Source of the DNA: Patescibacteria group bacterium
GTDB taxonomy: Bacteria; Patescibacteriota; Patescibacteriia; SG8-24; DYFX01
Reading direction: 5' to 3'
DNA: 51,452 nucleotides
NCBI GenBank assembly: GCA_030583805.1
Contig: CP129476.1
Location: 1 to 51,452 of the forward strand
The stretch's first letter is position 1, and the number at the start of each line of letters is the position of its first letter. A program made the position numbers and the translations under genes. The notes below the pieces were generated by a model. It was not told the origin of the DNA, did no database searches, and saw only the letters and a list, made by a program, of their open reading frames with translations. Below, in pieces: positions 32,803 to 40,988 of the stretch.

Positions 32803-34146
32803 ATGTCGACCCATAAAACCAACCCACTCTCCAGGACCCTCAAGACGTTTTTTGGGCGCGACACGTCGATCTTGCGCGAGGCGCTCAAGGCGATCCAACC
32901 CGCCGAGCTTGGCGTGATCGTGAGCGGCTTGTCCGAACGCGAGCAATTGCAAGTCTTGAACTTGCTTGAAGCGCAAAAACTCTCGCGGGTTCTTTGGGAA
33001 GTCAGTCCGCACATGCGACGCCGCCTGCTTGGGCGCATGCCGTTCGACAACCTGACCAAGCTCGTGGCGGTCATGGAATCCGACGAGGCCGTCGACATCA
33101 TCCAGCTGCTCGATCGCCGGCGCAGAGAGCGGATGCTTGAAGCGCTCAAGCGCCACGATCCGAAGAAAATCCTGCCCCTCCTCGGATTCGAAGAGAAGAC
33201 CGCCGGCGGTTTGATGAAATCCGAGTATCTTCGAGCTGAATCGGGGAAGTCGGTTGAAGAAGTCCGAAAGGCGATCGCCGCCGCGAACAGCGGCACGCAG
33301 AAGTCGTCGACCGTGTACGTGGTCGATCCCCAAAACGTCCTGGTCGGCGCGATCTCGCTCATGCGTCTCGCGACGGCGGCGGCCGACAGCCGTATCGACG
33401 ACTTGGCGCACGGGCCGGCGGCCAAGCTGCCGGTCGGCATGTCGCAGGATGAAGTAACGCAGCGTTTCAGCGATCTCGACGCAGTCGAACTCCCGGTCGT
33501 CGACGGGCGCGGAAAATTGCTCGGCGTCGTCACAGCCGACGACATGCTCGACGTGCTCAGAGAGTCGCTCTCGGAAGATCTCTCGCGTTTCAGCGGTACC
33601 TCGGAAGACGAACACGTCAGCGACCCCGCGTGGCTTTCGATCCGCCGGCGTTTGCCGTGGCTCCTCGTGAACCTCGCCACCGCCGTGCTGGCGGCCTCGG
33701 TCGTCGCGCAGTTCCGCGACACGATCAGCCAGATCGTCATCTTGGCCGCGCTCATGCCGATCGTGGCCGGCATGGGCGGCAATGCCGTGACGCAGACGCT
33801 CGGCGTTTCCATCCGCGCCCTGGCGCTTCACCAACTGCATACGTGGGACATGTGGAAAATCGCGATTCGCCAGATGCTAGTGGGCGCGGCGAACGGTTTC
33901 CTGACGGGCACCGTCATGGCGGGTCTCGTCTATCTCTGGACGCGCGATCTCCAGCTTTCGATCGTCATGGTGGTCGCCATGACCATGACGCTGTTTATCG
34001 CGGGTCTCGGAGGTATTCTCATTCCCGTGACGATGAAGAAGTTGAAGATCGACCCCGCGCTTGCTTCAACTGTTTTCACGACGACGCTGACGGACGTGGT
34101 CGGCTTCTTCACGTTCCTTGGTTTGGCCAAAATTCTTTTGACATGA
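32803..34146 (+). CDS. mgtE: Magnesium transporter MgtE
   Basis: N-domain, tandem CBS region, and a C-terminal TM domain with PIVAGMGGNAVTQT. Confidence 0.9.
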   Translation: MSTHKTNPLSRTLKTFFGRDTSILREALKAIQPAELGVIVSGLSEREQLQVLNLLEAQKLSRVLWEVSPHMRRRLLGRMPFDNLTKLVAVMESDEAVDIIQLLDRRRRERMLEALKRHDPKKILPLLGFEEKTAGGLMKSEYLRAESGKSVEEVRKAIAAANSGTQKSSTVYVVDPQNVLVGAISLMRLATAAADSRIDDLAHGPAAKLPVGMSQDEVTQRFSDLDAVELPVVDGRGKLLGVVTADDMLDVLRESLSEDLSRFSGTSEDEHVSDPAWLSIRRRLPWLLVNLATAVLAASVVAQFRDTISQIVILAALMPIVAGMGGNAVTQTLGVSIRALALHQLHTWDMWKIAIRQMLVGAANGFLTGTVMAGLVYLWTRDLQLSIVMVVAMTMTLFIAGLGGILIPVTMKKLKIDPALASTVFTTTLTDVVGFFTFLGLAKILLT

Positions 34147-35501
34147 AACTTCATTTTTTCGGCGCAGCGCAGGAAGTGACCGGCACGTGCTACCTCCTCG
34201 AATCGGGGAGCCATAAAGTGCTGGTCGATTGCGGCATCTTTCAAGGCGGAGAAGGGGACAGCAAGCGCAACCAGCTGCCGTTCCCGTTCGATCCCGATTC
34301 GATCGACGCGGTGTTTTTGACGCACCCGCACATGGATCACGTCGGGCGCGTGCCGTTGCTCGTGAAACGCGGGTATCGCGGACCGATCTTCTCGACGTTT
34401 CCGACCGCCGAACTCAGCAAGTTGTTGTGGAAGGACATGCTGTCGATCATGCAGGACGCTGAAAAGCGCGATCGCGTGCCGGCGCTCTACGACGAAGACG
34501 ACGTCGCGAAAGCTGAGGAACGCCTCGTGCCCGTCGAGTACGAGACACTGGCCGAGATCTGCGCCGGCGCGATCAAGGCGACCTTTCACGATGCCGGACA
34601 CGTGCTCGGGTCGGCCTTCATCGAGTTCAATCTCGAGCACCGGACGATCGTGTTCTCCGGCGACCTCGGCAACGATGACGTGCCGATTTTGCGGCCGACG
34701 TCGCCGCTGCCGCAGTGCGACGTGCTCGTGGTCGAATCGACGTATGGCGACCGCCTGCATGAAGACTTGCAAACGCGCCGCACGATCCTTCGCGATTTGG
34801 TGAAAGAGACGGTCGAGAAGAAGGGCGTGCTCATGATCCCGACGTTCGCGATCGAACGCACGCAGGAAATCATGCTGACGCTGCATCGCCTGGCGGAGAA
34901 CGGGGAGATTCCCCGCGTACCGATTTTTCTCGACAGCCCGCTGGCCATCAACGCCACGCACGTGTACGAGGAGTACGGCCGCTATTTCAACGAGAACGCC
35001 AAAAACGAAATGCTTTCAGGGCACGAGCTCTTCGAGCTGCCGGGTTTTGTCGCGACCAAGACCTCGGACATGTCGAAAAAAATAAACGAGGTCGTACCGC
35101 CGAAAGTCATCCTGGCCGGCGCGGGCATGATGACCGGCGGGCGCATCCTGCATCACCTCGTGCGGTATCTGCCCGACCCCAACTCGACGCTCATGATCGT
35201 CGGCTACCAGGCCCACGGCACGATCGGGCGGAGGCTCTACGAAGGTGCCAAGACCGTCCGTATCCACGGCCACGACGTGCACGTGAACGCGACTGTTACG
35301 TCCGTCGGCGCCTGGAGCGCGCACGCCGACCAAGCCAAACTCCTGCGCTGGATCCAAAGCGCGCCCAAGAAGCCGGAGGTCGTTCTCGTGACGCATGGGG
35401 AACAGAACGCCTCCGAAACCCTCGAACGAAAGCTGCGGCGCGACCTGCATATCGACGCCTACGTGCCGGCTCCAGGGCAGACATTCAACCTGCATACCTA
35501 A
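34143..35501 (+). CDS. MBL-fold beta-CASP family ribonuclease (CPSF73/RNase J-like)
   Basis: ATGA overlap with mgtE. HPHMDH motif, beta-CASP region, C-terminal SAHAD. Confidence 0.85.
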   Translation: MKLHFFGAAQEVTGTCYLLESGSHKVLVDCGIFQGGEGDSKRNQLPFPFDPDSIDAVFLTHPHMDHVGRVPLLVKRGYRGPIFSTFPTAELSKLLWKDMLSIMQDAEKRDRVPALYDEDDVAKAEERLVPVEYETLAEICAGAIKATFHDAGHVLGSAFIEFNLEHRTIVFSGDLGNDDVPILRPTSPLPQCDVLVVESTYGDRLHEDLQTRRTILRDLVKETVEKKGVLMIPTFAIERTQEIMLTLHRLAENGEIPRVPIFLDSPLAINATHVYEEYGRYFNENAKNEMLSGHELFELPGFVATKTSDMSKKINEVVPPKVILAGAGMMTGGRILHHLVRYLPDPNSTLMIVGYQAHGTIGRRLYEGAKTVRIHGHDVHVNATVTSVGAWSAHADQAKLLRWIQSAPKKPEVVLVTHGEQNASETLERKLRRDLHIDAYVPAPGQTFNLHT

Positions 35502-35512
35502 TAAGGATATAC

Positions 35513-35539
35513 AAAATTAGCCTAATATAGGCTAATTTT
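35513..35539. repeat. Perfect 10-bp inverted repeat aaaattagcc-N7-ggctaatttt in the AT-rich junction
   Basis: Read directly. Could be a bidirectional terminator for the RNase gene or an operator. Confidence 0.6.
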
Positions 35540-35572
35540 GCTAATATAAGCAATTTATATTGTCAGTTAGTA

Positions 35573-35601
35573 TTGACAAAACCGCTTAAATATGCTAGAC
35601 T
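35573..35601 (+). promoter_or_regulatory. Promoter TTGACA-N17-TAGACT for the island operon A-D
   Basis: ttgaca 35573-35578, 17-nt spacer, tagact 35596-35601. Confidence 0.6.
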
Positions 35602-35651
35602 GCCTTCATCGTAGCACTGGCAGTTCAACCCGTATTTCCGGAGGATTTCTC

Positions 35652-35963
35652 ATGAAGACCCTGCTCATTTCGCTCGTCATCGCCCTCGGCCTCTTCACCG
35701 CCACCCAGACCGCCTCGGCCGAGCGCAGGCTCGAGAATCCGGTGCACAACGTCGTGAAGCTCGAGATCAAGAAGGCGAAGTTCGTCTTCAGCAAGCCGAC
35801 CACGATCCAGATCAAGCCCTGTGTCGACGACGCCCGCTACGAGTGCGTCTACAAGCTGGTCGGCAAGCGCCGCAACAAGGAGATCAAGATCTACGAGTAC
35901 CGGGCGCACGACTACGTCCTCCCGATCTACACGACCGAGGAGAAGGTCGCCGCCAAGAACTGA
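35652..35963 (+). CDS. Island gene A: small secreted protein (103 aa)
   Basis: GGAGGA SD 6 nt before the ATG. Signal peptide ending TASA-ER. Two Cys. Near-total G/C at third codon positions. Confidence 0.65.
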   Translation: MKTLLISLVIALGLFTATQTASAERRLENPVHNVVKLEIKKAKFVFSKPTTIQIKPCVDDARYECVYKLVGKRRNKEIKIYEYRAHDYVLPIYTTEEKVAAKN

Positions 35964-35995
35964 TCTCACGATCCCACCACCAACCACGCCTCAGC

Positions 35996-36079
35996 GCCTC
36001 AGTCGCGTCGAGCACTCCTGCTCGACGTCCCGCCAAAGGTTCCGAAACGATTCGGAAACTTCGGCGGGAAATTCTTCCC
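35996..36079 (+). repeat. Intergenic two-hairpin element, copy 1
   Basis: Hairpin 1 gcgtcgagca-ctcc-tgctcgacg (36005-36028). Hairpin 2 cccgcc..ttccgaa-acga-ttcggaa..ggcggg (36029-36068). Confidence 0.75.
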
Positions 36080-36132
36080 AACTGTTCCCTATACGCGCAC
36101 CGGCGCACACAACCCAGACCAAGGAGCTTTCC

Positions 36133-36495
36133 GTGAATCACTCCCTATTGCGTCGTGAAGCCGTCATCCCTCCGCCCCCGCTGTCGAAGCGCGTTATTCA
36201 CCTGCTGTCGCTCATGAAGCTTCAGTTTCTCGTCATCGGCCTCTCGGCTGCGGTTGCCACGATGTGGTGCGGCCCTATCGGGTTCGATGCCGCTCTTGCA
36301 CAAAAGATCGGCAAGGTTGATCAGCCCGCCTTGCAGCATCCTACGCAAGAGTCGCCATCGTGCATCCTGAGCTTCGGCGACCAACTCGCCGTGCTTCGAG
36401 TGCTGAACGTCGATCCTTCGACCGTTGATGCAGTGCGCTGCGCCGTCGACGGTAAGACGGTCGAGATGACCTATACAGTGCGTTCTCAGCACTGA
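36133..36495 (+). CDS. Island gene B: small protein with one hydrophobic segment (120 aa)
   Basis: AAGGAG SD 6 nt before the GTG. Hydrophobic segment MKLQFLVIGLSAAVATMWCG. Alternative start at ATG 36214. Confidence 0.55.
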   Translation: MNHSLLRREAVIPPPPLSKRVIHLLSLMKLQFLVIGLSAAVATMWCGPIGFDAALAQKIGKVDQPALQHPTQESPSCILSFGDQLAVLRVLNVDPSTVDAVRCAVDGKTVEMTYTVRSQH

Positions 36496-36520
36496 GCTCA
36501 GTACCGAACTTATTCTGCTT

Positions 36521-36595
36521 CGCGTCGAGCACTCCTGCTCGACGTCCCGCCAAAGGTTCCGATACACTCGGAATCTCCGGCGGGAAATCCTTCCC
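36521..36595 (+). repeat. Intergenic two-hairpin element, copy 2
   Basis: Same 45-nt core as copy 1. Hairpin 2 differs in loop and inner stem but stays paired (ttccga-tacac-tcggaa). Confidence 0.75.
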
Positions 36596-36643
36596 TCCGA
36601 TCACCAAACACTCGAGGCTTTCGTCTCGAAAGGAGCTCGTTCC

Positions 36644-37030
36644 ATGTTCGGCAAAGCCTTGTTCATCCTCGTGGTTGCGATCATCGCCATCGCTGTCTTT
36701 CTCGTCTGGTTGGACGGATGGCGCGCCAAGCGTCGCAAGCGCCAGCAGCAGAAGATCTTCCTCGACGTGAAGATCGAGGGCGTTCCGTACTGGGCCTACA
36801 AGCACGCAATCGGTCCGTTCGACACGATCGCGCAGCTGCAGGACTGGGAGCGGCGTTTCAAGGAAGGCCTCAAGAACCTCTCCTTGCCCAGTGAACCCTC
36901 GTTCACGCACCGCTACTCCGACAGCTACCGATGGACTCCGGAAGACGCCTTGAGCGACCTTCGGAAGTCGTTGCGCACGTTCGCGTCCCTGCCGGTCGCA
37001 GACCTGCCCACGGATCGGTACGTGAACTGA
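36644..37030 (+). CDS. Island gene C: N-terminally anchored membrane protein (128 aa)
   Basis: AGGAG SD. TM segment ALFILVVAIIAIAVFLVWL followed by KRRKRQQQK. Confidence 0.6.
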   Translation: MFGKALFILVVAIIAIAVFLVWLDGWRAKRRKRQQQKIFLDVKIEGVPYWAYKHAIGPFDTIAQLQDWERRFKEGLKNLSLPSEPSFTHRYSDSYRWTPEDALSDLRKSLRTFASLPVADLPTDRYVN

Positions 37031-37047
37031 CCGTCTCGTTCGTTTTC

Positions 37048-37077
37048 GCCTCAGCCGCGTCGAGCACTCCTGCTCGA
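37048..37077 (+). repeat. Intergenic element, copy 3 (hairpin 1 only, followed by a different hairpin)
   Basis: gcctcagccgcgtcgagcactcctgctcga matches copy 1 over about 29 nt. Confidence 0.65.
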
Positions 37078-37184
37078 AAAAGAAAGATGGGTCCGTATCC
37101 GAGAGGCCCATCGTTCCGCAACACGCAGGCGATCGATCGCTCGGACAAGGAAGTTTCCCCACAACATCGCACCCCGAGGTTGTC

Positions 37185-37439
37185 ATGGATGAGAAAATCC
37201 TGATCGTCATCACGACCTTTCGCAGCGACAACGATCGCGACCTGAGGCGGGAATGCCTCGGGCCGTACGATCGGCAAACGGCGCCGGCCAAGCTCGAAGG
37301 CCTCTTCGCGCTTTGCCGCAAGGAAGGCATGAAAAGCCTGAAGGGCTTCAAGGCCATCCGCCGCGGCGTCTGCCTGCACAAGCCGGGGACGCGCTTGTGC
37401 GTCGAGATCAGGGTGGACAGCTTTGTCCCCAGCCACTGA
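37185..37439 (+). CDS. Island gene D: small cytoplasmic protein (84 aa)
   Basis: GAGG SD 5 nt before the ATG. Four Cys. No recognisable motif. Confidence 0.5.
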   Translation: MDEKILIVITTFRSDNDRDLRRECLGPYDRQTAPAKLEGLFALCRKEGMKSLKGFKAIRRGVCLHKPGTRLCVEIRVDSFVPSH

Positions 37440-37478
37440 TCCGTGCAGCGCGTCGTTGACCGGCGCCACTCAGTCCTC

Positions 37479-37503
37479 AAGACCCTCCCAAGGGTCTTTT
37501 GTT
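37479..37503 (+). terminator. Intrinsic terminator ending the A-D operon
   Basis: aagaccct-ccca-agggtctt followed by a T-run. Confidence 0.75.
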
Positions 37504-37519
37504 CGTATTGAGCTTATTA

Positions 37520-37548
37520 TTGACATGATTGCTTCTACCTGATAGCCT
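37520..37548 (+). promoter_or_regulatory. Promoter TTGACA-N17-TAGCCT for island gene E
   Basis: ttgaca 37520-37525, 17-nt spacer, tagcct 37543-37548. Confidence 0.55.
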
Positions 37549-37592
37549 CAGTCTCGTCTTTGGACAGCCCGATTGCCGGGTAGGAGGTTTCG

Positions 37593-38795
37593 ATGCGTTC
37601 TACGTCCATCTTGCTGCTCTCCTTGGTTTTCCTGGTCTGTGCCGGCGCCTGTGCCGGACGCCAGCGGCCCCAGCAGGGGCTGCATTCCGAGACGCGCCAG
37701 ACGGCGCCGAACGCTCCCGACCCCGACGTCCGGATCGTTCCCAATGACACCGTCGACACGAAGATCAGCCTGCCCGAAGCGCCGACGACGTCGGACGAGG
37801 TCGCGGCTTCTGTCGTGACGAAGAAGCCGGTTCCGCCCCGCGCCAAGCGCGTTCGCTCCGTCCAGGAGCGACCCAGCGCCGAAGCCCGGCGCGTGACCGA
37901 CACGGACGCCGCCCGGCCGCAGGCCGAGCGCGCGCGAACGCGCGGGACGCACGTCCCGGCCGCACTGCCTGACAACGACGCAACCGTCATTGCCATGCGT
38001 GCCGAGCCCGGCGCGCCGCCCCATCGTTCCGACGCTCCCGTCGCGCAAGCGACCGTCGAGCCCGATCCGTTCCATGCTCCTCCGAGCTCTTCCTCGACGC
38101 AGGTCGCTTTCCGCGACACGCGCACACGACCATTGACACCTCTGTCCCCGCGAGAGCGGGAACGCGCCAACGCCGCCGCCCTCGCCGCCCTGGAATCACC
38201 GATTTCCGCGGCGACGAACGCCGCGCAGCCCGCACCGACGGCTCCTTCCGAGCCGGCATCCGTCATCTCCGCCACCGACACGACTTCGCGGCGCCTCGAT
38301 GCCGCGATCGCCGACTCCGAACCTTCGTCGGCCACGCAGGCCGGCGTTTCCACGAACCTGTACGTTCCGAGCGCTCCAGAGAGCGCTTCGAGTTCCCGCC
38401 TGTACCAGTACGTTCCCGCGATCATCGTCGCGCTGCTCCTCGGCATCCTCATCGGCTACGTGCTTTCGCGCCTTCCGGCGCGCGGATCTTCATTCGATGA
38501 CGACATCTATCCGGATGTCGATCACGCGTCAGCCGGCGCGCATGCGCCCGAGTCCGTCCCGGTATCCGAACCTGCTCCCGTACAGGAGCCCGTTCCCGTG
38601 CTCGTCGTTCCAAGTCCCGCCAGTTCGAGCGTGGAGGCCATGCCTCCCACGCAGTTCCCCGAAGGCTCCGGCAGCATCGTCACATCCGCAGGACCCGACG
38701 CCTGCTCTTCCGTCTCGGGCGAGATCGAGCTCCTCGATTCTCCCGCGCCTCAAGAGGCGCCGACACCACCAACAACCGAAACGCGGTTGAACTGA
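37593..38795 (+). CDS. Island gene E: low-complexity Pro/Ala/Ser-rich envelope protein with a signal peptide and a late TM (400 aa)
   Basis: AGGAGG SD. Signal ILLLSLVFLVCAGAC. TM IIVALLLGILIGYVL near residue 285. Confidence 0.65.
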   Translation: MRSTSILLLSLVFLVCAGACAGRQRPQQGLHSETRQTAPNAPDPDVRIVPNDTVDTKISLPEAPTTSDEVAASVVTKKPVPPRAKRVRSVQERPSAEARRVTDTDAARPQAERARTRGTHVPAALPDNDATVIAMRAEPGAPPHRSDAPVAQATVEPDPFHAPPSSSSTQVAFRDTRTRPLTPLSPRERERANAAALAALESPISAATNAAQPAPTAPSEPASVISATDTTSRRLDAAIADSEPSSATQAGVSTNLYVPSAPESASSSRLYQYVPAIIVALLLGILIGYVLSRLPARGSSFDDDIYPDVDHASAGAHAPESVPVSEPAPVQEPVPVLVVPSPASSSVEAMPPTQFPEGSGSIVTSAGPDACSSVSGEIELLDSPAPQEAPTPPTTETRLN

Positions 38796-38821
38796 CCGCA
38801 CCACGACCCCACCGTTTCTGA

Positions 38822-38851
38822 CGGCCCCTCCTCGAGGCGGCCGGTTTTTTT
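38822..38851 (+). terminator. Intrinsic terminator closing the island
   Basis: GC-rich imperfect hairpin cggcccctc/gaggcggccg followed by TTTTTTT. Confidence 0.7.
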
Positions 38852-38859
38852 ATTCCGCT

Positions 38860-38890
38860 TTGACACGTTCGCCATCCCGTTCTCTAAGCT
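38860..38890 (+). promoter_or_regulatory. uvrB P1: TTGACA-c-GTTCGCCATCC-N7-TAAGCT (19-nt spacer)
   Basis: Same register and GTTCGCC core as the elements at 21227 and 26411. Confidence 0.45.
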
Positions 38891-38897
38891 GCTATTG

Positions 38898-38926
38898 TTG
38901 ACAAGACTGTTTACGAACGGTATTTT
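38898..38926 (+). promoter_or_regulatory. uvrB P2: TTGACA-N17-TATTTT
   Basis: Canonical spacing. Ends 16 nt before the ATG at 38943. Confidence 0.5.
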
Positions 38927-38942
38927 GCGTTCTCACCCGCAT

Positions 38943-40988
38943 ATGGACTTCAAGCTCCACGCACCATACGCACCGGCGGGGGATCAGCCGCAAGCGATTG
39001 ATAAGCTTGCGGCTGGCTTGTCGTCTGGAAAAAAGCTCCAAACCCTGCTCGGCGTGACCGGTTCGGGCAAAACCTACACGGTCGCCAACGTCATTCAGAA
39101 GATCCAGAAGCCGACGCTCGTGATCGCGCACAACAAGACCTTGGCCGCGCAGCTCTGCAACGAGTTCCGCGAATTTTTCCCGGAAAACGCCGTCGAGTAT
39201 TTTGTTTCCTACTACGACTACTACCAGCCGGAAGCCTACGTCCCTTCGAGCGACACCTACATCGAGAAGGAAGCGATGATCAACGAAGAGATCGACCGTC
39301 TCCGCCACGCGTCGACGCAGGCGCTGCTGACGCGCAAGGACGTGATTATCGTCGCTTCGGTGTCCTGCATCTACGGCTTGGGCGCGCCGGAGGAATACGA
39401 AAAGACCGTCCTGCATTTCAAGACGGGGGAGCGCCTGACGCGCGAAGACGTGCTGAAGCGTTTCATCGCCATGCAATTCGAGCGCACGACCGCCGACCTC
39501 ACGCGCGGCCACTTCCGCGTGCGCGGCGAGACGGTCGAGGTCATGCCGGTCAACGAGGAAATGATCTACCGCATCGAAACGGGGCTCGGACAGATCAACG
39601 GCATCTATAAGATCGATCCGGTCACGCGCAAGCGCGCCGAGCGCGTCGAGGACGTTTGGATTTTCCCGGCCAAGCACTTCATCACGAACGCCGAAGACCG
39701 CACGCGCGCCTTGGCGGCGATTGAGAAAGAATTGAAGGAGCAGCTCGAGAAGTTCCGCAAAGAAGGCAAGCTCCTCGAAGCCGAGCGGCTTGAGCGCCGC
39801 ACGCGCTTCGACATGGCGATGATGCGAGAGGTCGGCTACTGCCACGGCATCGAGAACTATTCGCAGATTCTCTCCGGCCGTCCGCCGGGCGCGCCGCCGG
39901 ACACGCTCTTGTCGTACTTCCCGAAAGACTACCTGATGGTCATCGACGAATCGCACGTGACGATTCCGCAAATCGGCGGCATGTCGGCCGGCGACGCCGC
40001 GCGCAAGAAAACGCTGATCGAATACGGTTTCCGCCTGCCGAGCGCCGCCGACAACCGCCCGCTCGCCTGGAAGGAATTCGAGAGCCGCATGCCGCAAGCG
40101 CTGCTCGTTTCGGCGACGCCGGGCAAATACGAATACGAACACAGCGACCAGATCGTCGAGCAGATCATCCGCCCGACCGGCCTTGTCGACCCGGAAGTCA
40201 TCGTGAAGCCGGTCACGGAAAGCCTGGATTCCGGCTACAAGGGCCAAGTCGAAGACTTGATCGAACGCATCAAGGGGCGCATCGAGAAAGACGAGCGCGT
40301 CATGGCGACGACGCTCACGAAGAAGATGGCGGAAGACCTCACCTCGTATCTGGAGTCGCTCAAGATCAAGGTGAAATACATTCACTCCGACGTCGAAACG
40401 CTCGACCGCATCCAGATCCTCCACGAGTTCCGTCGCGGCGTGTTCGACGTGCTGATCGGCGTGAACCTGCTGCGCGAGGGCCTCGACCTGCCGGAAGTTT
40501 CGCTGGTCGCGATCCTGGATGCTGACAAGGAAGGCTTCCTGCGCTCGGAGACGTCGCTGATCCAGACGATCGGCCGTGCCGCCCGTAACGTCGGCGGCCA
40601 AGTCGTGCTGTATGCCGACGGCGACACTGGCTCGCTCTCGCGCGCCATCAAGGAAACGAACCGCCGCCGCGAACGCCAGCTCGCCTACAACAAGGAACAC
40701 GGCATCACGCCGAAGACGATCAAGAAGTCGATCACCTCGATGTTCACCGAGATCGAGAAGTCGCGCGAGAAGGCCGCCAAGCGCAACCTGGAACTCGAAG
40801 CCAAGGCCGAGAAGCGGCCGATCGACGAAGTGCTGAAAGAAAAGGAAACGCAGATGCGCGAAGCCGCGAAATCGCTGGAATTCGAACTCGCCGCTCTTCT
40901 GCGCGACGAGATCCGTGAACTCAAGAAGAAACAGGCGGAAGCCGACAAGGCGCCGAAGAAACCCGCAAAGCCGCGCCGCGGACGCTAA
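38943..40988 (+). CDS. uvrB: Excinuclease ABC subunit B
   Basis: Starts MDFKLHAPYAPAGDQPQAI. Walker A GVTGSGKT, DESH box, C-terminal UVR motif ELAALLRDEI. Confidence 0.93.
   Translation: MDFKLHAPYAPAGDQPQAIDKLAAGLSSGKKLQTLLGVTGSGKTYTVANVIQKIQKPTLVIAHNKTLAAQLCNEFREFFPENAVEYFVSYYDYYQPEAYVPSSDTYIEKEAMINEEIDRLRHASTQALLTRKDVIIVASVSCIYGLGAPEEYEKTVLHFKTGERLTREDVLKRFIAMQFERTTADLTRGHFRVRGETVEVMPVNEEMIYRIETGLGQINGIYKIDPVTRKRAERVEDVWIFPAKHFITNAEDRTRALAAIEKELKEQLEKFRKEGKLLEAERLERRTRFDMAMMREVGYCHGIENYSQILSGRPPGAPPDTLLSYFPKDYLMVIDESHVTIPQIGGMSAGDAARKKTLIEYGFRLPSAADNRPLAWKEFESRMPQALLVSATPGKYEYEHSDQIVEQIIRPTGLVDPEVIVKPVTESLDSGYKGQVEDLIERIKGRIEKDERVMATTLTKKMAEDLTSYLESLKIKVKYIHSDVETLDRIQILHEFRRGVFDVLIGVNLLREGLDLPEVSLVAILDADKEGFLRSETSLIQTIGRAARNVGGQVVLYADGDTGSLSRAIKETNRRRERQLAYNKEHGITPKTIKKSITSMFTEIEKSREKAAKRNLELEAKAEKRPIDEVLKEKETQMREAAKSLEFELAALLRDEIRELKKKQAEADKAPKKPAKPRRGR

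Follow-up and report, generated by a model that had tools for sequence, protein, structure and literature searches.

A covarying two-hairpin RNA element repeated in the intercistronic gaps of a variable small-gene array in Patescibacteria

The four-gene array and its repeat copies

The stretch of DNA analysed here (the window) comprises 51 kb (51,452 nucleotides of contig CP129476.1) out of the 1.17-Mb genome of a Patescibacteria group bacterium, and this report concerns a hairpin-forming element that is repeated in three consecutive gaps of a four-gene array in the window and is read as an RNA structure in the array mRNA. The array constitutes one transcription unit, which consists of a strong sigma-70-type promoter (35573–35601, + strand; TTGACA-17-TAGACT with a TG extension), four small genes that we designate A to D, and a canonical intrinsic terminator (37479–37498, + strand; an 8-bp stem followed by TTTTGTT). 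All 4 genes are on the + strand. Gene A (35652–35963) encodes a protein of 103 residues that has a signal peptide and belongs to no Pfam or NCBIfam family; gene B (36133–36495) has a GTG start and encodes 120 residues with a predicted membrane anchor; gene C (36644–37030) encodes 128 residues with an N-terminal membrane helix; and gene D (37185–37439), the final gene of the array, encodes 84 residues and has no element after it. A promoter scan found no promoter-like sites within the array gaps.

The element was recognised through the 22-mer CGCGTCGAGCACTCCTGCTCGA, which occurs with 0 mismatches at positions 36004, 36521, and 37056 of the + strand, one copy each in the A–B, B–C, and C–D gaps. 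An earlier note on this DNA had placed the hairpin sequence in these gaps and nowhere else in the 51 kb, and this holds: no further match with up to 3 mismatches was found on either strand of the window, where shuffled sequences predict 0. The distance to the upstream gene differs from the 30–45 nt given in that note, the 22-mer starting 40, 25, and 25 nt past the stop codons of genes A, B, and C, respectively.

Copies 1 and 2 are full modules. Copy 1 (35985–36099, + strand) begins with the 5′ flank gcctcagtcgc and is composed of hairpin 1 (36006–36027), hairpin 2 (36028–36069), and hairpin 3 (36066–36079); copy 2 (36502–36615, + strand) has the same arrangement, with hairpin 1 at 36523–36544, hairpin 2 at 36545–36585, and hairpin 3 at 36582–36595. 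The covariance model of the element, R1, scores them at 103.3 and 101.9 bits. The 2 copies are 98% identical over 46 nt, terminate alike in gggaaatYcttccc, and both fold into a hairpin 1 (10 bp, CUCC loop) directly abutted by the long hairpin 2, with z-scores against shuffled sequences of −5.6 (copy 1) and −5.5 (copy 2). The near-identity, the second long hairpin, and the shared end described previously are thus all present, and the stop-to-motif distances apart, the facts stated in the earlier note hold.

Copy 3 is partial (37047–37077, + strand) and includes only the 5′ flank (gcctcagcc) and hairpin 1 (stem 37059–37066/37071–37077, loop CTCC). This hairpin 1 has 7 bp because its closing C is replaced by A, and R1 reaches only 15.4 bits over 37037–37180. 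The different hairpin that follows (37085–37111, + strand), also seen in the earlier note, belongs not to the element but to the leader of gene D itself: it is homologous to the D leader in the related locus L064 (5760–5895), which precedes a gene 80% identical to gene D (L064 5892–6146) and has no hairpin 1 upstream of the leader hairpin. Since the D leader occurs in L064 without hairpin 1, copy 3 is, judging from this homology, a recombinant junction of hairpin 1 with the gene D leader.

Structure and conservation of the module

Relatives of the array were gathered through the protein encoded next to it (a beta-CASP ribonuclease, described below), a degenerate pattern of hairpin 2, and look-ups of gene A homologues; the beta-CASP protein also placed the source organism in a Patescibacteria/Minisyncoccota lineage. 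The relatives, which are uncultured, contain 28 full copies of the module in 15 distinct related Patescibacteria loci, with 1–5 copies per array and 5 copies in consecutive gaps in L074. All 28 copies are on the sense strand in intercistronic gaps of 110–188 nt within a small-gene array; hairpin 1 starts 10–70 nt past the stop codon (median 24.5), hairpin 2 ends 35–66 nt before the next start codon (median 47.5), and the gene downstream of each copy has its own Shine–Dalgarno (SD) sequence. In every array that was read to its end, including that of the window, the final gene is followed by a canonical U-tract terminator and no element.

The full module spans approximately 90 bases and folds into 2 to 3 hairpins. 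It has 4 parts: (i) a C-rich single-stranded 5′ flank, (CUUCA)ACCCUCAGCC, which in several genomes directly follows the stop codon; (ii) hairpin 1, a GC-rich stem of 7–11 bp whose loop is usually C/U-rich with CUC, separated by a linker of 0–3 nt from (iii) hairpin 2, a helix of 16–17 bp broken by an internal 2×2 loop, with a 7-bp lower stem (UCCCGCC/GGCGGGA), an upper stem of 9–10 bp, and a terminal loop of 3–6 nt; and (iv) in most copies, a small hairpin 3 (GGGAA-N4-UUCCC, extending up to GGCGGGAA/UUCCCGCC). The AA/CC sequence of the internal loop is kept in most copies (in L106 it is replaced by paired GC/GC, which leaves the loop of this one copy fully paired), and the A-U and G-C pairs beside it are invariant in 28/28 copies. 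The region of hairpins 1 and 2 folds at −31 to −46 kcal/mol (mean −38). Hairpin 3 takes as its 5′ arm the 3′ strand of the hairpin 2 lower stem, and hairpins 2 and 3 are therefore mutually exclusive. This strand can pair with downstream sequence in 27 of the 28 copies, the pairing reaches 7–8 bp in L001-2, L004, L064-2, and L106, and in 5 copies the minimum-free-energy fold already favours hairpin 3.

Many elements (in L003, L004, L074, L104, L106, and L107) have the motif (C)UUCAACCC(UC) in their 5′ flank, often directly after the stop codon (UGA-ACCUUCAACCCUC). The 5′ leader that gene A has past the promoter contains this motif as well (window 35625–35640).

The C-rich 5′ flank (CCUCAGCC) resembles an anti-SD sequence, and the element could in principle act in translational control if the flank reached past the hairpin bases to pair with the SD of the downstream gene and so masked it until the RNA is remodelled. 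The predicted probability of such pairing is 0.76–0.79 in both full window copies compared with 0.20–0.24 when the flank is shuffled, and the minimum-free-energy fold pairs SD with flank in 12 of 28 copies. Across the family, however, the natural flanks do not differ from flank-shuffled controls (Wilcoxon p 0.40 and 0.48), and the gaps are C/U-rich, so that GGAGG finds partners by chance. SD sequestration, predicted for the 2 window copies but not significant in the family, was set aside, and we regard translational control of this kind as quite improbable.

Covariation in the aligned copies supports hairpins 1 and 2. RNAalifold applied to a MAFFT alignment predicted both hairpins, with double compensatory changes in 9 of 21 pairs. 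In a model-based alignment of 20 copies, 94.2% of the cells in paired columns are paired, double changes occur in 12 of 25 pairs, and none of 500 shuffles reached any of 5 measures; when the partners were slid by 1–3 columns, pairing fell to 32–47%. Eight divergent copies kept out of model building have 88% of their cells paired and double changes in 18 of 25 pairs (0/500 shuffles), and their covariation score is 0.62 against 0.07–0.17 for slid partners. The stem sequences of hairpin 1 are entirely different in these 8 copies, GUCGUC/GACGAC takes the place of CCCGCC/GGCGGG in the lower stem of hairpin 2, and CCGA/UCGG is replaced by CCAA/UUGG or by CAUGAGC/GCUCGUG. Both the 20-copy and the 8-copy alignments were fitted to the model, which favours structure; on account of the slid controls and the MAFFT result, we argue that the covariation signal is not an artefact of this fitting.

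The strand on which the structure is read follows from 3 observations: the paired columns contain 25 G-U cells and only 7 A-C cells; full-length matches to R1 (66–110 bits) are found on the + strand only, the reverse strand reaching at most 36 bits with hairpin 2 alone; and the array is a transcription unit without internal promoter-like sites. Thus, we read the element as a structure formed by the mRNA. On the antisense strand, the invariant AA/CC loop would form tandem G-U pairs, and the wobble argument rests on the variable positions. We conclude that the element is very probably a functional cis-acting RNA structure.

Hairpins 1 and 2 are on average 80% identical in nucleotide sequence between genomes, compared with 72% (56% at the protein level) for gene A, which is the best conserved of the array genes; among the most distant pairs, the hairpins hold 70–86% identity while gene A drops to 60–65%. 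Identity among element copies is 0.77 within a genome and 0.73 between genomes. Strong concerted evolution was rejected, the first value being barely above the second; individual homogenised cases are the 3 identical hairpin 1 copies of the window and copies in L002, L030, and L064.

These comparisons also bear on the reading of the repeat as a functionless, neutral remnant of local tandem duplication, which the earlier note had tied to a lack of further copies and of covariation. Both further copies and covariation were found: pairing survives many double substitutions in 28 copies from 15 loci, and the element is conserved at least as well as the best-conserved array gene while the genes between its copies are unrelated. 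The narrow distribution of the element, the arrays without it in L005 and L102, and the resemblance of several array proteins to distant paralogues with a shared GPF/GPY motif (described below) would fit a remnant, but we disfavour this reading as highly improbable.

Distribution of the element and setting of the array

Exact scans of genome and metagenome collections with 21- and 22-mers gave no match. The degenerate hairpin 2 pattern was scanned against 185,579 species genomes as well as metagenome and viral collections; of the matching stretches, 52 of 58 from genomes, 31 of 33 from metagenomes, and both from viruses were discarded as chance matches, and many of these, judged by the surrounding sequence, are simple hairpins or terminators in unrelated taxa. 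The remaining true matches of the genome scan also lie inside arrays, and outside arrays, neither the genome nor the metagenome collections gave an element-like match. Over the 646-kb contig JBAZZB010000001.1, from the closest relative, the pattern matches only the 2 array copies. No further R1 match was found in the window together with the fetched loci of relatives (approximately 0.31 Mb in total), and phage, plasmid, and viral collections contained no copies and no phage or plasmid similarity. A dispersed repeat of the REP (repetitive extragenic palindromic)/BIME (bacterial interspersed mosaic element) type or a miniature inverted-repeat transposable element (MITE), one of the roles raised at the outset, was rejected since the true pattern matches in the collections scanned, and the R1 matches in the fetched loci and in the 51 kb of the 1.17-Mb source genome, are confined to arrays. 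No terminal inverted repeats were seen on reading the aligned ends (CCUCAGCC ... UUCCCRCC), for which no formal test was run.

Searches against known RNA classes were likewise negative. The best Rfam 15 match in window 35400–37700 has E = 5.9 and none overlaps the element; 4 relatives gave 0 matches at the gathering score, and L074, with its 5 copies, gave 0 at E ≤ 1. ARAGORN found no tRNA or tmRNA. In agreement with the earlier note, which did not recognise a known RNA family, none is matched, and neither is a tRNA-like structure or a known ribozyme.

Some gaps of more distant relatives carry the same 5′ flank and hairpin 1 followed by a different long second hairpin (CCAUCC..GAUCSCGAGY..loop..), which R1 does not detect: L103 9851–9999 and 10378–10521, L104 11822–11941, L106 11982–12113, and L107 12553–12626. 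A design of 2 hairpins between cistrons thus seems to extend beyond the sequence family. In L065 (4280–4391), a Logan contig of a relative ends within the hairpin 2 loop of its first element; this end is probably an assembly break and not an RNA end, because an identical hairpin 2 is present twice in that genome.

In all relatives, the array is located between a beta-CASP nuclease gene and uvrB. In the relatives, the array promoter has the sequence found in the window. The gene content of the array is variable and its chromosomal position is conserved, contrary to its earlier designation as an island in the sense of horizontal transfer; the GC content of 35000–39000 is only slightly below the window mean and thus gives no compositional sign of recent transfer. 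The array genes fall into at least 20 families in mosaic order, most of them without a detectable homologue in the next genome. Gene A has only 5 homologues among 5.8 billion proteins, and homologues of gene C occupy other array positions in L066 and L074. The encoded proteins are small, have signal peptides or single membrane helices, and are predicted envelope proteins. None of them matches a protein family at threshold, the closest being a faint, sub-threshold SPOR-like match of one protein (PF05036, E = 0.021).

Several otherwise unrelated array proteins share a motif of GPF/GPY followed by a helix, for example HAIGPFDTIAQLQDWERRF and CLGPYDRQTAPAKLEGLF. They are encoded at 36644–37030 and 37185–37439 of the window (genes C and D), L001 7973–8308, L002 7967–8311, and L074 1688–2086 and 2208–2549, and from their sequences may be distant paralogues with a peptidoglycan-binding-like fold. 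The protein with the SPOR-like match is one of them.

The mosaic gene content speaks for a DNA-level role, in which the repeats would be cassette junctions: through site-specific or homologous recombination at these repeats, leader-plus-gene cassettes would be shuffled, deleted, and inserted in a variable array of surface proteins. Genomes with flanking beta-CASP proteins of 92–93% identity differ in the genes of the array and in their order; copy 3 of the window joins hairpin 1 to the gene D leader; variants of hairpin 1 have been exchanged independently of the loops of hairpin 2; and the copies in L064 have identical hairpin 2 and different hairpin 1 sequences. Against this, the G-U wobbles favour an RNA structure on the transcribed strand, the final cassette has no element, and within-genome homogenisation is slight. 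The features of integron attC sites are missing as well: a regular-expression search of both strands of the 4 window gaps for the cores RYYYAAC (R″) and GTTRRRY (R′) gave 0 matches, and no integrase-, recombinase-, or transposase-type Pfam domain was seen among the called genes within approximately 8 kb of the array in 9 annotated relatives. An attC site was accordingly rejected. As any repeated sequence is expected to recombine as a by-product, the mosaic arrays and the recombinant copy 3 lend the cassette-junction proposal of the earlier note weak support in that sense, and a dedicated junction appears improbable.

The gene directly upstream of the array (34122–35501) encodes a CPSF/aCPSF1-like beta-CASP ribonuclease and not RNase J, the NCBIfam matches being below cut-off. 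The protein has more than 2500 close homologues across Patescibacteria. In most relatives its gene adjoins the array, but at least one further gene intervenes in L003, L004, and L104–L107. With the gene conserved across Patescibacteria and separated from the array in these loci, adjacency gives no sign of joint function, and functional coupling was rejected in favour of ordinary conserved gene order.

Every relative has a further gene, gene E, downstream of the array; in the window (37520–38795), a second conserved promoter (TTGACA ... TGATAGCCT) and a leader drive this gene. Its Pro/Ala/Ser-rich product of 400 residues, for which no known family was matched, combines a signal peptide like those of lipoproteins with a membrane helix at the C-terminal end. 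Across 35000–39000, the array and gene E have a coding strand that is markedly rich in C, with a GC skew of −0.07 to −0.21 compared with roughly 0 to +0.1 over most of the remaining window.

Putative processing of the array transcript and comparison with known elements

Our tentative preference, held with somewhat less than even confidence, is that the element is an intercistronic mRNA processing and stabilising module that would punctuate the array transcript. Among the 4 roles suggested in the earlier note, it appears the best supported, because the copies are sense-strand, strictly intercistronic, very stable, U-tract-less, and covarying. Hairpins 1 and 2 would block 3′-to-5′ exonucleases, so that each upstream cistron would persist as a stable unit. 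Hairpin 2, with its 2×2 loop between lower and upper stems, resembles a processing signal for a double-strand-specific (RNase III-type) nuclease and is compatible with one in size, but in the L106 copy the loop is fully paired. A cut on the 3′ side of hairpin 2 would free the G-rich strand GGCGGGAA, which could then pair with the downstream UUCCC(G/A)CC to form hairpin 3 and cap the 5′ end of the mRNA of the next cistron. The transcript would in this way be split into separately stabilised messages, setting relative expression within the array. The module has the feature described for selective RNA processing and stabilisation (SRPS), a stable stem-loop that has no U-run and lies in the 3′ region of an operon cistron (PMC4423207).

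Several points weigh against this proposal. (i) The relatives L005 and L102 have the same promoter and small-gene array and run the operon without the module, which is therefore dispensable for the array as such. (ii) Hairpin 3 is weakly supported: a shuffled version of the C-rich downstream 22 nt pairs equally well in a median of 23% of trials, and the hairpin is absent or rearranged in several copies. We did not retain hairpin 3 as a selected structure, since the G-rich arm pairs almost as well with shuffled C-rich sequence. (iii) The processing itself, the cut site, and the nuclease are all inferred. (iv) Simple exonuclease barriers need no conserved primary sequence, and the invariant core of hairpin 2 thus hints at a specific binding partner that the processing model does not name.

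The last point leads to the possibility that the element is bound by RNA polymerase or by a protein acting in trans. The put RNAs of phage HK022 are 2 adjacent stem-loops that act in cis on RNA polymerase, and the element might be a put-like processive antitermination RNA, or an operator for a regulator of translation or stability, which would be reloaded at every gap of an operon with long untranslated spacers. Conservation beyond the needs of pairing (the invariant A-U and G-C pairs and the mostly kept AA/CC loop), the abutting of the 2 stem-loops, and the C/U-rich CUC motifs in the flank, in the loop of hairpin 1, and along the 3′ strand of hairpin 2 are consistent with such a site; the mRNA is C-rich (GC skew −0.11 to −0.21), and its untranslated gaps could otherwise attract Rho. 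The array nevertheless encodes no candidate partner, every one of its proteins being small, predicted to be in the envelope, and without an RNA-binding domain; the AA/CC loop is swapped for paired GC/GC in L106; and the sequence of hairpin 1 is freely replaced. We consider a binding site of this kind unlikely, though worth keeping in view.

The mutual exclusion of hairpin 3 and the lower stem of hairpin 2 would also be expected of a leaky internal terminator or attenuator, in which hairpin 2 serves as antiterminator, hairpin 3 or hairpins 1 and 2 act as a weak terminator without a U-tract, and expression steps down along the operon. Some hairpins 3 have 7–8 GC-rich bp followed by a short U-containing stretch (CGUUUC or UGUUUCUGUU), and internal terminators tune operon stoichiometry in known cases (PMC9045158, PMC10450193). 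As the earlier note had stated, however, the copies are not canonical terminators: the hairpins are GC-rich, but at most 4 T occur in the 8 nt after hairpin 2 in 28/28 copies, a terminator scan flagged 0 of 3 window copies, and the copies are in mid-operon in organisms that have textbook U-tract terminators at the array ends. An intrinsic terminator was rejected on these grounds. Hairpin 2, moreover, forms first and is far more stable, so that the terminator arm would rarely form, and the weakness of hairpin 3 counts here too. Attenuation is in our view rather unlikely.

A more far-reaching version of the processing model posits a dedicated RNA-punctuation system of Patescibacteria, in which a trans-acting nuclease or binding protein would read the hairpin 2 core and cut the array into stabilised mRNAs while the repeats double as junctions for cassette exchange in DNA. 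A candidate reader would be the CPSF-like beta-CASP ribonuclease, itself conserved, whose gene is the direct upstream neighbour of the array in most relatives. This dedicated system is distinctly unlikely; if true, the array would amount to an integron-like set of cassettes that lacks an integrase.

An intercistronic mRNA stem-loop is a known kind of element. What is solidly new here is a composite, sequence-conserved module that is repeated in consecutive gaps, private to one hypervariable array in a narrow clade of Patescibacteria, and absent from Rfam. Patescibacteria (the candidate phyla radiation) have tiny genomes with few recognisable regulators, and to our knowledge almost nothing is known about their post-transcriptional control. 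The motif is tied to a single context, in that it occupies the spacers between genes for small secreted and membrane proteins in an array that diversifies rapidly; proteins of this kind are expected to mediate host-cell contact. If the module does punctuate and stabilise the transcript, it would show how such organisms set expression ratios within an operon and how new genes plug into an expressed array with a ready-made spacer, and it would be a compact portable part (approximately 70 nt) that could be tried in synthetic operons. If it is merely a stabilising hairpin, the mechanism is ordinary and the lineage unusual.

Among known systems, the RNase III signals of phage T7 early mRNA (R1.1 type) are related hairpins of about 2 turns with an internal loop, repeated between the cistrons of one long transcript, and cleavage in the 3′ strand of the loop leaves a protective 3′ hairpin on the upstream message. 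The size of hairpin 2, its internal loop, and its intercistronic repetition are reminiscent of them. By contrast, there is no sequence similarity, an extra hairpin 1 abuts hairpin 2 here, cleavage of the module would be an expectation by analogy, and the setting is a chromosomal array of Patescibacteria and not a phage.

In the cip-cel operon of Clostridium cellulolyticum, 3′ stem-loops that mostly have no U-run stand beside processing sites; they protect the cistron upstream and determine the ratios between transcripts (PMC4423207). Comparison between this SRPS system (PMC4423207, PMC10311766) and the module revealed that in both (i) stable hairpins follow a cistron inside a polycistronic operon; (ii) most hairpins have no U-run, and the downstream genes are still transcribed; and (iii) the stem-loops are orthologous across related species. 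The differences are that the cip-cel stem-loops are gene-specific and divergent in sequence, whereas one composite module with invariant nucleotides occupies consecutive gaps here; that folding energies are −6.6 to −31.8 kcal/mol there and −31 to −46 kcal/mol here; and that processing sites were mapped there, while the module is known from sequence.

The REP/BIME, ERIC (enterobacterial repetitive intergenic consensus), and Correia (CREE) elements are, like the module, transcribed and imperfectly palindromic repeats of intergenic spacers, and they can make the upstream mRNA more stable or serve as RNase III targets; for CREE, both binding and cleavage by this enzyme were reported (PMC2649163). 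A genome has tens to hundreds of dispersed copies of such repeats, some of which are mobile, whereas the module is confined to a single array with 1–5 copies per genome. Integron attC arrays, including clusters of attC sites lacking integron-integrases (CALIN), are alike in that hairpin-forming repeats separate short, promoterless, co-oriented, and highly variable genes behind one promoter. The array described here differs in that RYYYAAC/GTTRRRY cores, an integrase, and a repeat after the last gene were not found; attC sites conserve structure only, whereas the module is highly conserved in primary sequence and its wobble pairs favour the top (mRNA) strand.

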